From: Chiloscyllium plagiosum
Lineage: Eukaryota
Length of the DNA stretch: 27,814 nt
Reading direction: 5' to 3'
NCBI RefSeq assembly: GCF_004010195.1
Contig: NC_057718.1
Location: 62,415,619 to 62,443,432 of the forward strand
Position numbers and translations under genes: made by a program. The notes under the pieces were generated by a model. The model saw nothing but the letters and a program-made list of their open reading frames with translations, did not search any database and was not told the DNA's origin. Of the stretch, positions 3,691 through 27,222 are shown piece by piece; within the stretch, counting starts at the first letter, position 1; each line of letters starts with the position of its first letter.

Positions 3691-4300
3691 GTATCAATTG
3701 CTACAAAGTCTCAAAGGAGTGAAACCAGAAAGATCACCTGGCATCCACTAAGCATCGGAAAAGACAATGGCAGAAACAGCCCAGTCAATCGGACAAAGTT
3801 TTCCTCAGTTGGGGGCTAGTGCTAAAATTGAGAGAGCTGTCTCAAAGACTAACCAAACAACAGTTTGACATAATCATGTTCACAGAATCATATCTCACAG
3901 ACAATATCCCAGACACCACCATCACCATCGCCACCATCGTGGTGTCTGGGATACTGTCTATAAGATGTGATTCCGAAAGTATGACTATGTCAGGCTGTTG
4001 CCTGCCAGTAGTAGGACAGATCCAGCAGAGGTGGCTGAACAGTGGTATACAGTCAAGAGGGAGTTGCCCTGGGAGTCCTCAACATTGACTCCAGAGCCAA
4101 TGAAGTCTCGTGGCTTCAGGTTAAACATGAGCAAGGAAACTTTCTGCTAAAAGTCACTTCCTCCCTTGACTGATGAATCTGTAGTCCTCTGTGTGGAACA
4201 ACACTTCAAGGAAGCACTGAGAGTGGCAAAGATGCAAAATGTACTTTGTGGGGGTTTCCATTTCCACCACCAAGAGTGGTTCAGCAGCAGCACTACTAAT
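3691..4300 (+). mobile_element. CR1/Zenon-like LINE AP-endonuclease N-terminus (degraded)
   Basis: GLVLKLRELSQRLTKQQFDIIMFTESYL (APE motifs I/II) and NVLCGGFHFHHQEW (decayed GDFNVHHxEW). Confidence 0.75.
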
Positions 4301-6123: not shown

Positions 6124-6159
6124 ATTCCTGATGAAGGGCTTTTGCCCGAAACGTCGATT
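6124..6159 (+). ncRNA. Minimal type I hammerhead ribozyme motif (PLE-type)
   Basis: attc CTGATGA A GGGC-TTTT-GCCC GAAA CG TC gatt: full core, 4-bp helix II, palindromic ACGT at helix III. Confidence 0.75.
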
Positions 6160-6279
6160 TTGCCTGTCCTCGGATGCTGCCTGAATTGCTGTGCTCTTCC
6201 AGCACCACTGATCCAGAATCTGGTTTCCAGCATCTGCAGTCATTGTTTTTAAATCCAGCCCCATCCCTACTAGCATAAG

Positions 6280-6696: not shown

Positions 6697-7030
6697 TTTT
6701 TTTTATTTTTAACCCCCACACTACCACCTAAGTGCGGTAGTCCTTATTTGTTTCCCCAGCACCCATGGTGTGTGTGTGCAGGTGTGAGACACAGTGAAAG
6801 ACACAAAGTGCACAAATCTTTATTCAAATTCCACCACCAGGAAGAAAGGAAAACACCCGGGTGGCCAGTGACAAACACTGCCCATCAAAGGGCTGTGCTG
6901 TGTGTTCAAAAACAGTGAAGGGGAGGGTAGGGACTAAATCAAAATAGAGTTGGAAGGAGAAATGATGCACTCCATTCTCTGCGGCGCCCACCTCTCCCTG
7001 AACAACTCCAGGGTGTTGATCGACACCGCG
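6697..7030 (-). mobile_element. Tx1-like LINE 3' end, copy A
   Basis: ORF end AVSINTLELFRERWAPQRMECIISPSNSILI*, AATAAA, 3' stem-loop ACTACC/GGTAGT (6720-6741), A-rich tail, flanking direct repeats. Confidence 0.7.
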
Positions 7031-7044
7031 ACGATCGTGTTTAT

Positions 7045-7391
7045 TTTTTTTTGTTTTTTTTTTATTTTAACCCCCACATTACCACCGAAGTGCGGTAGTG
7101 CTTATTTTTTCCCCCAGCACCCCTGGTGTGTGTGTGTGCAGGTGTGAGACACAGTGAAAGACACAAAGGGCTGTGCTGTGTGTTCAAAAACAGTGAAGGG
7201 GAGGGTAGGGACTAAATCAAAATAGAGTTAGGAAAACACCCGGGTGGCCAGTGACAAACACTGCCCTTCACAGCAAGGGACAGTGCTGTGTGTTCAAAAA
7301 CAGTGAAGGGGAGGGTAGGGACTAAATCAAAATAGAGTTGGAAGGAGAAATGATGCACTCCACTCCCTGCGGCGCCCACCTCTCCCTGAAC
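7045..7391 (-). mobile_element. Tx1-like LINE 3' end, copy B (internally rearranged)
   Basis: FRERWAPQGVECIISPSNSILI*; exact 14-bp TSD ACGATCGTGTTTAT (7031-7044, 7392-7405). Confidence 0.7.
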
Positions 7392-7699
7392 ACGATCGTG
7401 TTTATATCTATAAACCGGGGATCCCTGATTGGACCATGTTGACAGCCCCAAACGGAACTCAATATGAGATTCACCTGGCTCATTGCAATCACTACAGCCA
7501 GCATACCTGTGCGAGGGGACAAATTAATCTGAGATCTCACTGTAATGACACAAACTCTATGAAGGTCATAATTTTGCATGACACACCAATGTGTATTTGA
7601 CACTTCATGTTGACTCAATGGTTTTGTTCTGCAATCATCATTCCAACTGTCATAAACAATTTATTACCTATTAACTTGACTAAATCAATCTGTTAAATG

Positions 7700-17559: not shown

Positions 17560-17836
17560 AAAAACATAAGAAATAGGAGAAGGAATAGGCCGTCTGGCTC
17601 GTTGGGCCTGGTACACATTCAATAAGATCATGGCTAATCTTACAGCGGACCCAGCTCCACTTAATCACCCGTTCACAAAAACCCTTAATTCCTTTACTTG
17701 CAAAAATCTATTTATCTTTGCCTTAAAAACATTCAGTGAGATTGCCTCACTTGCTTCACTGGGCAGCGAATTCCACAGATTCACAATTCTTTGGGTGAAG
17801 AAGTGAATCTGTGGAATTCCCTGCCCAGAGAAGCAA
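17560..17836 (-). mobile_element. CR1 3' fragment with inverted duplication at its truncated 5' end
   Basis: CR1 tail at 17560; 34-bp arms 17751-17784 and 17803-17836. Confidence 0.8.
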
Positions 17837-17959
17837 ATTCATCTGAGAGATTGTCAGTTAACTGACATCAAACACTTTAAAAGCTCTTGAAATTTGGAAC
17901 AAAACATCCAAAAGGTGGATTCTGATAACTATATTCAATTTTCACCTCATGAGCATCTC

Positions 17960-18740
17960 TGATTTTATGCACTCTATCTTTGGTGGCCATGCCTTCATAG
18001 GCTAGACCTTAATCTATGAAATTTCCTACCTCTCACCTCTCACATTTACAGAGAGTCATAGAGATGTACAGCACAGAAACAGACCTTTCGGTCCAACTCA
18101 TCCACGCCGTCCAGATATCCCAACCCAATCTAGTCCCACCTGCCAGCATCCGGCACATATCCCTCCAAACCCTTCATATTCATATACCCATCCAGATGCC
18201 TTTTAAATGTTGCAATTGTACCAGCCTCCACCACTTCCTCTGGCAGCTCATTCCATATACCACCCTCTGCCTGAAAAGGTTGCCCCTTAGGTCTCTCTTA
18301 TATCTTTCCCCTCTCACCGTAAACCTATGCCCTCTAGTTCTGGACTCCCCCACCCCAGGGAAAAGACCTTGTCTATCCATGCGCCTCATGATTTTATAAA
18401 CTTCTATAACATCATCCCTCAGCTTCCGACGCTCCAGGGAAAACAGCCCCAGCCTATGCAACTTCTCCCTATAGCTCAAATCCTCCAACCCTGGCAACAT
18501 CCTTGTAAATCTTTTCTGAACACTTTCAAAGTTCATAACATCCTTCCGAAAGGAAGGAGACCAGAATTGCATCATCTTCATGCTTTTTCCTTTAAGAACA
18601 TACGTCTTTAACCAAAGCCTTTGGGCTTCTGACCTAATATCACCTAATATGGTTCAGAGTCATATCTTGTTTTATAACACTCCTGTTTTTCACCTTGCAG
18701 TGTTTTGATATACTAAAGATGCTTTAAAAATAAATATTAT
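17960..18740 (+). mobile_element. L2 LINE 3' remnant split by a CR1
   Basis: ggtggccatgccttc...tctttaaccaaagcctttgg...taaagatgctttaaaaataaa resembles an L2 3' end. Confidence 0.55.
18049..18573 (-). mobile_element. Young CR1 3' fragment
   Basis: MQFWSPSFRKD...VQKRFTRMLPGLEDLSY...; close match to 24921-25470. Confidence 0.92.
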
Positions 18741-20375: not shown

Positions 20376-20507
20376 CTTATGTTGCAATAGTTCAGTGATA
20401 TTGGTTATGATTACATCTTTTTCTTTTAGCTGTGTTTTCAGTTGTGCGGTTTCTTTTTCCAGTATACAGATTCTTTCCATCAGCTGTTTTTGATCATACA
20501 TAGAAAC
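20376..20507 (-). CDS. Coding exon VSMYDQKQLMERICILEKETAQLKTQLKEKDVIITNITELLQHK
   Basis: Acceptor catgatttgtag, donor AAG|gtaaag; 132 nt, phase 0-0; leucine heptads. Confidence 0.85.
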
Positions 20508-22180: not shown

Positions 22181-22379
22181 AAAGTGCAGCACAAAATATG
22201 CACGTTTCTGGATGTAAGTTTGCTCGCTGAGCTGGAAGGTTTATTTTCAGACGTTTCATACTAGGTAATATCATCAGTGAGCCTCCGGTGAAGCACAGGT
22301 GTTATGTCCTGCTCTCTATTTATGTGTTTAGGTTTCCTTGGGTTGGTGGTGTCATTTCCTGTGTTGGTGATGTCATTAC

Positions 22380-22637
22380 AAACAGTACATTGGACAAACA
22401 GGCAGAAAACTAGCCACTAGGATACATGAACATCAACTAGCCACAAAAAGACATGACTCACTATCACTCATATCCTTCCATACAGATGAGAAAGGACACT
22501 ACATTGAGTGGGACAACACATCCATCCTAGGACAAGCCGAACAGAGACACGCACGACAATTCCTAGAAGCATGGCATTCCAACCACAACTCTATCAACGA
22601 ACACATCGATTTGGACCCCATCTACTATCCTCTGTGA
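22380..22637 (+). pseudogene. PLE GIY-YIG endonuclease C-terminal fragment, no start codon
   Basis: KQYIGQTGRKLATRIHEHQLATKRHD...H..EKGH..EWDNTSIL...RQFLEAWHS..NSIN; 85 open codons. Confidence 0.88.
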
Positions 22638-22723
22638 AAAAGAACTGGAAATGACATCACTAACCCAAAGAAAGCTCAACACATAAATAGAAAGCCAGAC
22701 ATAACACGCATGCTTCACTGTAG

Positions 22724-22766
22724 GCTCCCTGATGATGTTACCTAGTATGGTGATGAAATGTCTGAA
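22724..22766 (+). ncRNA. Hammerhead motif (CpG-decayed) in PLE terminal repeat
   Basis: CTGATGA T GTTACC tagtat GGTGAT GAAA TG TC; the inverted copy near 22250-22280 keeps GAAACGTC but has a helix II deletion. Confidence 0.55.
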
Positions 22767-23274
22767 AACAAACCTTCCAGCTCAGCGAGCAAACTTACAT
22801 CCAGAACCTCAACCTGACCTACAAATCTTTTCAAACCTCACTAATATGCATGTTTATATAGTCATTCAGAACTTCTCACCACTGCATAAAATATAGCATG
22901 GACGCAAAACTTGTCAAATGCCCACCAATTTTATGTGAGTATGGATACATATTTTTATGATGTTAAACAAGAATTATATGCAATTTGTAGGAATTTAGTG
23001 AATGCTGAATAAATGTATCAGCAATAGTCAGGGAGAGGGTAATACAAATCATAACAAGCTAAAAGTGATTTGAAAAGCAAAAGGATAACCACAATGACTT
23101 TACTTCAAAGAGTGATCTCATGACAAATACTTACATAGAATCAAACAGTGCCACACTTCATCAAAGATGATACTGGTAAATGATTCATTAATTTGTTCAA
23201 CGATAAAATTCCAGGAATATACAAGAACAAATTCATCAGTGGAAAGACCATTGTAAAAGCTACACTTGCTATTG

Positions 23275-23900: not shown

Positions 23901-23921
23901 AATAGAAGGCAGTATTGTTAA

Positions 23922-24142
23922 CAAGAATCGAGAGTATGATGCTGGAAAAGCAAAGCTGGTCAGGCAGCATCTGACGAATAGTAGACTCGACGTTTCGAGC
24001 ATAAGCTCTTCATCAGGAATCCTGAAGAGCTTATGCTCAAAATGTCAATTCTCCTGGTCCTCGGTGCTGCCTGACCAGCTTTGCTTTTCCAGCACCAAAC
24101 TCTCAACTCTGATCTCCAGCATCTGCAGTCCTCACTTTCTCC
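23922..24142. mobile_element. Fold-back mini-element made only of two head-to-head PLE terminal repeats
   Basis: Arms ~23930-24018 and ~24020-24104; exact 12-bp TSD CAGTATTGTTAA (23910-23921, 24143-24154); same family as the 6120-6250 tail. Confidence 0.88.
23985..24020 (-). ncRNA. Minimal type I hammerhead ribozyme motif, intact core, host sense strand
   Basis: AUUC CUGAUGA A GAGC-UUAU-GCUC GAAA CG UC GAGU; helix I AUUC/GAGU (one G-U); predicted cut between 23989 and 23988. Confidence 0.78.
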
Positions 24143-24186
24143 CAGTATTGTTAATAAATCAGGGTATGAAGAAAATTTCATCTTAC

Positions 24187-24459
24187 TTTGTTTGAGGCAT
24201 CCTTGGCAGAAATGTCATGTTTTTCTCTTTCAAAGTTTTTTTTTGATAGCGTCAACTTCTGTATTTTAACAGTATCAAAATGTATGGCTGGTTGTTTTGC
24301 TTCTGGAATGGACATGGCTACACCAGTTATACCAGTAAAATCTGGAGGGTCATTGATAGGTATGTCAGGACTGGAGATTGGACTGTTGTGTTTCAGGTTA
24401 TGATATGGTTGTATTGCTCCTACTTTCATCCTGAGCGTTTTAGGTTTGCTGTTAGACAT
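24187..24459 (-). CDS. Probable first coding segment MSNSKPKTLRMKVGAIQPY...DISAKDASNK (exon probably starts at 24520)
   Basis: 91 open codons in non-repeat DNA; donor AAA|gtaaga phase 0 matches the next exon; acceptor cttgattctcttgaaaactag at 24521; in-frame stops upstream of ATG. Confidence 0.7.
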
Positions 24460-24920: not shown

Positions 24921-27180
24921 GTCATAGAGTTGTAGAGATGTACAGCACGGAAACAGACCCTTCGGTCCAACCCGTCCATGCCAACCAGATATCCCAACCC
25001 AATCTAGTCCCACCTGCCAGCACCCGGCCCATATCGCTCCAAATCCTTCATAATCATATACCCATCCAGATGCCTTTTAAATGCTGCAGTTGTACCAGCC
25101 TCCACCATTTCCTCTGGCAGCTCATTCCATACATGTACCACTCTCTGTGTGAAAAGGTTGCCCCTTAGGTCTCTTTTATATCTTTCTCCTCTTACCCTAA
25201 ACATATGCCTTCTAGTTCTGGACTCCCCAACCCCAGAGAAAAGACTTTGCCTATTTACCCTATCCATGCCTCTCATAATTTTGTAAACCTCTATAAGGTC
25301 ACCCGTCAGCTTCTGACGCTCCAGGGAAAACAGCCCCAGCCTGTTCAGCCTCTCCCTGTAGCTCAAATCCTCCAACCCTGGCAGCATCATTGTAAATCTT
25401 TTCTGAACCCTTTCAAGTTCCCTCACAACATCTTTCCAGTAGGAAGGAGACCAGAATTGCATGCAATATTCCAACAGTGGCCTAACCAATGTCCTGTACA
25501 GCTGCAACATGACCTCCCAACTCCTGTACTCAACACTCTGACAATAAAGGAAAGCACACCAAATGCCTTCTTCACTATTCTATCTACCTGCGATTCCACT
25601 CTCAAGGAGCTACGAACCTGCACTCCAAGGTCTCTTTGTTCAGCAACACTCTCTAGGACCTTACCATTAAGTGTAGAAGTCCTGCTAAGAATTGCTTTCC
25701 CAAAATGCAGCTCATTGGCCTATCTGATCAAGATCCTGTTGTAATCCAAGGTAACCTTCTTCACTGTCCACTACACCTCCAATTTTGGTGTCATCTGCAA
25801 ACTTACTAACTGTACCTCTTATGCTCACATCCAAATCATTTATGTAAATGACAAAAAGTAGAGGACCCAGCACCGATCCTTGTGGCACTCCACTGGTCAC
25901 AGGCCTTCAGTCTGAGAAACAACCCTCCACCACCACCCTTCTATCTTTGAGCCAGTTCTGTACCAAATGGCTAGTTCTCCCTTTATTCTGTGAGACCTAA
26001 CCTTGCTAACCAGTCTCCCATGGGGAACCTTGTCGAACACCTTACTGAAGTCCATATAGATCACATCTACTGCTCTGCCCTCATTAATCCTCTTTGTTAC
26101 TTCTTCAAAAAACTCAATCAAGTTTGTGAGACATGATTTCCCATGCACAAAGCCATGTTGACTATCCCTAATCAGTCCTTGCCTTTCCAAATACATGTAC
26201 ATCCTGTCCCTCAGGATTCCCTCCAACAACTTGCCCACCACCGATGTCAGGCTCACCAGCCTATAGTTCCCTGGCTTGTCCTTACTACCCTTCTTAAAGA
26301 GTGGCACCACATTAGCCAATCTTCAGTCTTCCGGCACCTCATCTGAGACTATCGATGATACAAATATCTCAGCAAGAGGCCCAGCAATCACTCCTTTAGC
26401 TTCCCACAGAGTTCTAGGGTACACCTGATCAGGTCCTGGGGATTTATCCACCTTTATGCATTTCAAGATATCCAGCACTTACTCCTCTGTAATAAGGACA
26501 TTTTGCAAGGTGACACCATCTATTTCGCTACTTTCCATATCTTCCATATCCTTTTCCACAGTAAATACAAGGTGGCTCAGTGGTTAGCACTGCTGCCTCA
26601 CAGCACCAGGGTCCCAGGTCCAATTCCAGCCTCAGGTGACTGTCTGTGTGGAGTTTGCACATTCTCCCCGTGTCTGCGTGGGTTTCCTCCGGGTGCTCTG
26701 GCTTCCTCCCACAGTCCAAAGATGTGCAAGTCAGGCGAATTGGCCATGTTAAGTTGCCCATAGTGTTAGGTGCATTAGTCAGAGGTGAAATGGTTCTGGG
26801 TGGGTTACTCTTCGGAGGGTCGGTGTGGACTGGTTGGGCCAAAGGGCCTGTAGGGAATCTAATCTAATCTAATCTAATCTAATCTAATCAAATACTCATG
26901 TAGTATCTCTCCCATTTTCTGCGGCTCCACACAAAGGCCGCCTTGCTGATCTTTGAGGAGCCCTATTCTCTCCATAGTTATCCTTTTATTCTTAATGTAT
27001 TTGTAAAAACCCTTTGGATTCTCCTGAACTCTATTTGCCAAAGCTGTCGCATGTCCCCTTTTTGCCCTCCTGATTTCCCTCTTAAGTATACTCCTACTGC
27101 CTTTATACTCTTCTAAGGATTCACTCGATCTATCCTGTCTATACCTGACATATGCTTCCTTCTTTTTCTTAACCAAACCC
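24921..27180 (-). mobile_element. Young 5'-truncated CR1 (HER1-like) LINE ORF2, frameshifted, with internal deletion near 25712
   Basis: [52 protein letters not shown] in the ORF track. Confidence 0.96.
26569..26889 (+). mobile_element. HE1-type V-SINE nested in CR1
   Basis: GGTGGCTCAGTGG A-box, V-domain, (aatct)n tail. Confidence 0.92.
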
Positions 27181-27222
27181 TTAATTAAAGACAGTAAGTA
27201 CCAAAAACTTTCATGTACTTAC

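Follow-up and report, generated by a model that had tools for sequence, protein, structure and literature searches.

Palindromic Penelope-like terminal repeats in the shark Chiloscyllium plagiosum: a decayed intronic copy and a possible footprint of double-primed reverse transcription

Palindromes built of two head-to-head terminal repeats (pLTRs) of a Penelope-like element (PLE) number some 10^5 in the genome of Chiloscyllium plagiosum, and we consider it about an even call that they are the footprint of double-primed reverse transcription, a process that would account for the inverted pLTRs which Penelope elements carry. The pattern among young copies of the family points to a capped RNA that would be copied from both nicked strands of the target. 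One old copy lies in a host intron within the window, by which we mean the whole 27,814-nt stretch analysed here (RefSeq assembly GCF_004010195.1, contig NC_057718.1, positions 62,415,619 to 62,443,432, forward strand). This copy is very probably an ordinary old insertion, likely neutral as we infer, with a hammerhead motif that is likely idle in the host intron.

Anatomy of the intronic insertion

The whole insert consists of two asymmetric head-to-head pLTRs and contains no open reading frame. Its parts, together with the flanking host exons and target-site duplication (TSD), are as follows.

20376..20507, - strand: next host coding exon
23910..23924, + strand: left TSD, an exact 12 bp that lengthens to 15 bp with a single mismatch
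23925..24020, - strand: inverted tail-less pLTR arm, host-sense
23983..24022, - strand: minimal type I hammerhead motif, nominal cut 23989/23988
24022-24017/23988-23983, - strand: helix I; 24016-24010, core CUGAUGA; 24008-23997, helix II; 23996-23989, GAAAC-GUC
24014..24024, no strand: head-to-head junction CAGGAATCCTG, axis 24019, with 1-2 nt of microhomology
24020..24142, + strand: pLTR arm with the tail, in the same sense as the element; its hammerhead is decayed, with a 3-nt deletion and CpG changes
24108..24142, + strand: 35-nt PLE tail, on the + arm only
24130..24138, - strand: donor-like site AAA/GTGAGG within the antisense tail; 51 nt past the true donor and not part of the long hairpin
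24143..24157, + strand: right TSD
24187..24459, - strand: coding exon of the host gene, which encodes an uncharacterised shark coiled-coil protein; donor AAA/GTAAGA at 24186

The duplicated sequence CAGTATTGTTAA is exact at 23910-23921 and 24143-24154, which is the 12-bp TSD of the first-pass annotation, and shows one mismatch when stretched to 15 bp. Because young relatives mostly carry TSDs of 13-16 bp (42 of the 54 young family copies that have one; 76 were examined, 22 were without, and a shifted control gave 0 of 76), the TSD of the intronic element is likely 15 bp. The insert would then span 23925-24142, about 218 bp and not the 221 bp first given. The reading of CAGTAT, past the 3' end, as element sequence rather than TSD was rejected, as copies diverge immediately after and young copies stop at CACTTTCTCC. 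The two repeats do meet head-to-head where the annotation had placed the axis, near 24019, and their alignment, about 88 nt long, contains 13 mismatches and one gap. Read in its own sense, the element lies on the + strand of the window. The tail-less arm extends from the A at 24020, the inferred start of the RNA, and stops about 38 nt before the 3' end of the family.

The host intron that contains the element is 24186-20508, and the element begins 44 nt past the donor, in agreement with the earlier figure of about 45 nt. Four shark proteins match the exon that ends at 24187 (the best at 98%, from Chiloscyllium punctatum), and all four of these homologues continue from it into the exon at 20507; the splicing described here is deduced from the gene models of these homologues. 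More host exons lie near 5139-4771 and 1446-1342. No Pfam family fits the gene convincingly and its homologues are uncharacterised shark proteins. At 4978-4888 it has a 90-nt in-frame intron without a stop, retention of which would preserve the frame.

The parent element

A longer copy of the element, L106, has a GIY-YIG domain (Pfam PF01541, 23.8 bits against a cut-off of 22.6) directly upstream of this same pLTR, and reverse-transcriptase fragments adjoin the repeat at other loci. All of the longer copies seen are broken or gapped. Since the repeat follows a GIY-YIG coding stretch in the longer copies, we assign it as the pLTR of an endonuclease-containing (EN+) PLE, which bears out the PLE origin proposed for the insert at the outset. 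The features of that class are present: a GIY-YIG reading frame before the pLTR, a tail of 30-40 nt at one end (35 nt here), and an inverted head-to-head pLTR with a TSD. Judged by its sequence, the intronic insert belongs to an already known type, PLE insertions that are truncated and inverted and carry a minimal hammerhead.

A CxxC motif ahead of GIY-YIG in the L106 linker makes the Neptune clade of PLEs a candidate placement, the clade name following PMC8557442. In the parent (L106 1400-1640, and L034) the inferred start is preceded, at a distance of about 30 nt, by a long pyrimidine tract and an acceptor-like TTTTATCTTAG, and an ATG within the pLTR opens the frame MLPDLLRFSS..., which continues through the tail.

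The layout with an inverted pLTR, one tailed end and a TSD is known for PLEs from the available portions of PMC3846280, PMC8557442 and PMC8969392. The EN+ PLEs described there resemble the shark family in having a head-to-head inverted pLTR beside the 5' end, a one-end tail of 30-40 nt, a TSD, a parent with C-terminal GIY-YIG and a reading frame that starts within the pLTR. They differ, as far as those portions go, in that the insert here is pLTR only and that such palindromes number about 10^5.

Abundance and decay

To estimate abundance we used 50 stretches of 10 kb picked blind (476,519 called bases; the genome is 3.56 Gb). They held 21 head-to-head pairs and 47 solo arms, or 44 palindromes per Mb, which extrapolates to about 150,000 palindromes in the genome (93,000-229,000). 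A first genome search gave 4,922 candidates, 40 of them scored, and 29 of 29 other fetched loci match on both strands. Exact genome matches to the 3' half of the core number 107,008 (control, 36). The first-pass annotation had proposed counting genomic copies with the junction: the exact junction 12-mer has 4,747 matches against 120 for the control, and the junction is not unique to this locus. It appears to recur because it forms anew whenever an insertion is made, and not through propagation of a palindromic unit. For the young subfamily, a 54-base stretch has 18,232 matches, that is, at least 18,232 near-identical young arms.

Decay was compared against 37 sister arms. Non-CpG changes affect 12 of 86 positions in the minus arm (a few of them at the junction) and 8 of 111 in the plus arm; the sisters average 7.8%. 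The core is retained in 4 of the 37 sisters, and the change of GAAA to AAAA, a CpG decay change, is found in 12. In unselected DNA, core and helix II are kept in 12 of 46 solo arms versus 2 of 20 palindrome arms, counts that cover the arms spanning the core irrespective of their orientation to genes. The minus arm shows no sign of selection and has decayed like its sister copies. Its unusually good form does count against a neutral reading: only 1 of 111 other old arms combines the core and helix II with a helix I of 4 or more contiguous pairs. Among 10^5 copies, however, many such arms are still to be expected, and the motif is probably a chance good fold at a locus that was chosen for that feature.

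The sequence after the cut was tallied by hand in 100 matches to the 3' half of the core, among the matches listed: 82 have GATT, 17 GAAT and 1 GACT, and the GAGTC variant of the minus arm is found in none, which likewise weighs against neutrality. The 17 cores with GAATCT after the cut form a perfect 4-bp helix I and are likely a separate subfamily with a better-formed ribozyme.

Young copies

The young set was drawn from one subfamily in the first 12 Mb of one contig and was chosen so that one arm reaches -99, with coordinates counted backward from the 3' end. From the 100 matches listed, 90 loci were taken; 5 of these, each the second arm of an insertion already counted, were dropped, leaving 85 copies, 43 palindromes and 42 solos. 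One tailed arm and one shorter arm are paired in 41 of the 43 palindromes; one of the others has two tails and one has none. Solos are divided into 17 tailed versus 25 tail-less, and the pairing in the palindromes departs from independent choice with p 2.5e-11. The 3' ends of young copies fall in two clusters that bound the 35-nt tail. Of the 41 one-tailed palindromes, the tail-less arm reaches further toward the 5' end in 21, the tailed arm does so in 11, and the two stop within 3 nt of each other in 9.

The 5' ends have a sharp edge. After exclusion of 9 ends beside unknown bases, 119 young 5' ends remained; 45 of them fall between -130 and -126, while the interval from -131 to -165 has none. 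This edge coincides with the A of TCATTCC, a sequence that fits the initiator consensus; the same A is the first base of helix I. Read-through matches, which keep the parent's C ahead of ATTCC, were set aside, and a hand tally of the first 100 of the 9,009 others gave G at that position in 64, where 25% would be expected (p ~1e-16); an earlier, smaller set of loci gave a weaker 19 of 50. An extra G opposite the cap is found in other retrocopies, and the extra G here could also stem from a preference of the target or of the joining step.

Junctions vary among the young palindromes, with microhomologies of 1-3 nt or short inserts, and those that recur have the tail on either side. The junction of the intronic element, CAGGAATCCTG, is present in 2 of the 43. 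RNA cut by the hammerhead was considered as the main template and rejected: 283 starts fall at the cut site versus 216 at a single control position three nt away, and many of the 283 are microhomology junctions.

A model for palindrome formation

We propose that the capped RNA would begin at the A of TCATTCC, on the 5' strand of helix I, the cap and the start both being deduced from the DNA. The element's endonuclease would make a staggered cut of about 14-15 nt, and each freed 3' end would prime its own cDNA, one at the first and one at the second of two internal start sites that are separated by 35 nt. The two cDNAs would be extended toward the cap, and their 3' ends would be joined through a few bases of microhomology. 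In the pre-mRNA the antisense arm emerges first and would pair with the hammerhead arm, a by-product of insertion geometry on this model. Twin priming of L1 produces inversions by priming from both target strands and joining at microhomologies. It shares these two features with the proposed route and differs in that the L1 parts cover different stretches of RNA, whereas the arms of the shark element cover the same one.

The model with two cDNAs is the simplest we can offer, given the rules seen in young copies and the cutting and extension of both strands by a PLE protein in vitro (PMC11167929). That protein belongs to the Poseidon element of Anolis carolinensis (PAc), and synthesis begins at two internal sites, one at either end of the tail (PMC11167929). 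PAc resembles the shark family in its two 3' ends bounding the tail and in giving no sign that hammerhead-cut RNA serves as template. The start sites of PAc were the same between strands in vitro, whereas the shark palindromes nearly always pair one of each; the two families likely belong to different PLE clades. In its boldest form our proposal would give the uncut hammerhead a role as an RNA pairing device, its self-complementary ACGU holding two templates for a dimeric protein, and this extension we regard as distinctly doubtful.

The origin of the palindromes, though not the other points, has an alternative, proposed in PMC3846280, in which a single antisense template gives rise to the second arm through self-priming or fold-back. 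Many junctions contain short palindromes and microhomologies, and in 20 of the 41 the tailed arm is equal to the other or reaches beyond it, as fold-back permits. In the remaining 21, however, the tail-less arm holds 5' sequence that is absent from the tailed arm, while only the tailed arm has the tail. Neither arm contains the other in these 21 palindromes, which therefore cannot be products of simple fold-back copying. We judge this origin unlikely and retain priming from both strands as the working model.

The hammerhead motif and its predicted folding

The motif of the minus arm reads GGAUUC-CUGAUGA-A-GAGC(UUAU)GCUC-GAAAC-GUC^GAGUCU. The intact core with helices I and II that had been reported in this arm is indeed present, with 6 bp in helix I (2 of them G-U) and 4 bp in helix II. 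The plus arm was correctly described as broken by a TGA deletion and a GAAA to AAAA change: 3 nt of its core are missing and AAAA is present. A core of CUGANGA/GAAA/NUH, the pair G10.1-C11.1, an extra base after N9 and the lack of a loop III identify the motif as a minimal PLE hammerhead (min-HHR). C15.2 adjoins G16.2, so that helix III is without a loop and cannot close within one molecule, as it does in an active monomeric hammerhead. The junction CAGGAATCCTG supplies helix I with its two outer G, which are absent from the parent; in the young parent form helix I has 2 contiguous pairs. An Rfam scan of the window returned no hammerhead family, only 8 weak hits at other places.

The minimal type I hammerheads of metazoan PLEs, in the sections available of PMC4209133 and PMC6765202, likewise lack loop III and have a palindromic 15.2-16.2, a short helix I, an extra nucleotide after position 9 and G10.1-C11.1; dual motifs on opposite strands are already known from the same sections. 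The intronic copy differs from the motifs given there in its 6-bp helix I, which derives partly from the junction and partly from a private change. A single minimal PLE motif gave no cleavage in vitro and dimers cut weakly, according to the accessible text of PMC4209133. The anole PLE ribozyme cut only with the PLE protein and was dispensable for insertion (PMC11167929). Non-LTR retrozymes (bioRxiv 10.64898/2026.07.22.740005), in the available extract, are also non-autonomous, PLE-derived and equipped with a type I hammerhead, but form head-to-tail tandems with at least 2 ribozymes in the same sense, whereas here the arms are head-to-head and there is one; we rejected a retrozyme identity on the orientation of the arms.

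The minus strand is predicted to fold as a single long hairpin (-145.1 kcal/mol, z -14.3), and 0 of 200 shuffles were equally stable. We folded the nascent minus-strand RNA at 7 lengths. At 7 of 7, forcing helices I and II of the hammerhead costs 18.3-26.2 kcal/mol, an equilibrium prediction like the other folding costs given here, and the probability of helix II is <1e-6. When the antisense arm is left out, the hammerhead fold is still disfavoured by 6.0-8.5 kcal/mol (3 lengths). The stretch just after helix I, minus strand 23972-23982, has private changes that make it complementary to the catalytic core, and because of these the arm is predicted to misfold even alone. The predicted accessibility of the donor is 0.39 both with and without the insert.

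The annotation had the complementary arm transcribed first in the pre-mRNA, an order with which we agree, and had it sequester the ribozyme in a hairpin of about 90 bp; such a hairpin is what the folding predicts. Since the hairpin is predicted to bury the hammerhead by 18-26 kcal/mol at all transcript lengths tried, the minimal hammerhead would be permanently folded away, that is, off and not a switch. Sequestration is predicted, yet there would be little to switch off and no on state is predicted.

Effects on the host transcript and the palindrome as a unit

An effect on the transcript that does not involve catalysis might come from the donor-like site of the antisense tail, or from editing or processing of the hairpin as happens to other inverted repeats. 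The hairpin is very stable, and AAA/GTGAGG (at 24135), which resembles the general donor consensus, lies outside it; use of this site would bring in an in-frame TGA. However, the predicted accessibility of the true donor is unchanged by the insert, the four shark gene models use the true donor, and the tail site is an unchanged feature of the element family. We therefore hold such an effect to be very unlikely. Many antisense tailed copies would bear the same donor-like site.

The palindrome could also be a non-autonomous unit, like a MITE or SINE, copied whole from a palindromic master. Many copies are alike in length and layout, as the 29 of 29 fetched loci matching on both strands illustrate, and the exact junction was found 4,747 times. 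Against this, junctions vary and tail polarity swaps among the 43 young palindromes, only 2 of which have CAGGAATCCTG, and solos with the same ends are equally common (42 versus 43). A MITE-like propagated palindrome was rejected on the variation in junctions and polarity, and we rate a palindromic master as highly improbable.

The first-pass annotation itself had envisaged a functional hammerhead which the antisense arm keeps inactive and whose release would act as a switch, affecting cleavage of the intron or its splicing. A host-sense strand with core, helix II and a helix I of 6 bp is a rare state among old arms, the antisense arm is transcribed first and predicted to pair with the motif, and the donor is only 44 nt away. 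The motif lacks loop III, however, and single minimal motifs do not cut (PMC4209133, in its accessible text). No folding window is predicted at any of the 7 lengths, the fold being disfavoured even without the antisense arm, and predicted donor accessibility is the same with and without the insert. In the one other host-sense motif found in the intron, helix II is broken and helix I differs; no sign of selection was seen, and by chance about 0.2% of donors are expected to have a palindrome within 50 nt. The further suggestion that a built-in off state explains tolerance of the element found no support, as in the sampled DNA solos (47), taken without regard to their orientation to genes, outnumber palindromes (21) and keep core and helix II at least as often. 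A hammerhead switch at this donor is, in our assessment, barely credible, and the preferred reading remains an idle motif in an ordinary insertion.

Other repeats in the window

The same intron contains a second head-to-head PLE insertion, of another family, at 22195-22855 (arms 22206-22362 and 22644-22806). Its TSD is 13 bp long and has one mismatch; it includes a fragment resembling GIY-YIG and, near 22277, the remnant of a host-sense hammerhead in which helix II is broken. At 6124-6241 there is a solo pLTR of a related family; it is on the + strand, opposite in sense to the host gene, and has an intact core and helix II. Hairpins at 3890-3968 and 17750-17837 have weak Rfam matches to microRNA families, far under the gathering scores, and are likely inverted repeats of other mobile elements. 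Decayed LINE reverse-transcriptase sequence, presumably CR1, occupies 24980-27220 and 18050-18570, and a SINE-like insert near 26600-26850 is one that we take to be tRNA-derived. At 6720-7400 there is a GC-richer repeated stretch with A-rich ends and two or three overlapping copies.

Discussion

In literature listings we found no published description of the shark element family, and our search found no published PLE description of the double-priming model, the rule of one tailed and one tail-less arm, the 5' edge or the extra G; in both cases subscription papers and repeat databases were outside the search. The formation of tandem and inverted PLE structures is named as an open task in the accessible text of PMC8557442, and a role of PLE hammerheads in vivo is unshown in PMC11167929 and in the available part of PMC4209133.

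The intronic locus itself matters little, being one decayed copy among very many, and the pattern at the level of the family matters more. The rules seen in young copies (the pairing of arms, the 5' edge, the extra G and the lack of an excess at the cut site) can be counted, and an existing in vitro system could test them. A vertebrate genome with more than 100,000 hammerhead half-cores argues that such motifs are inert by default.
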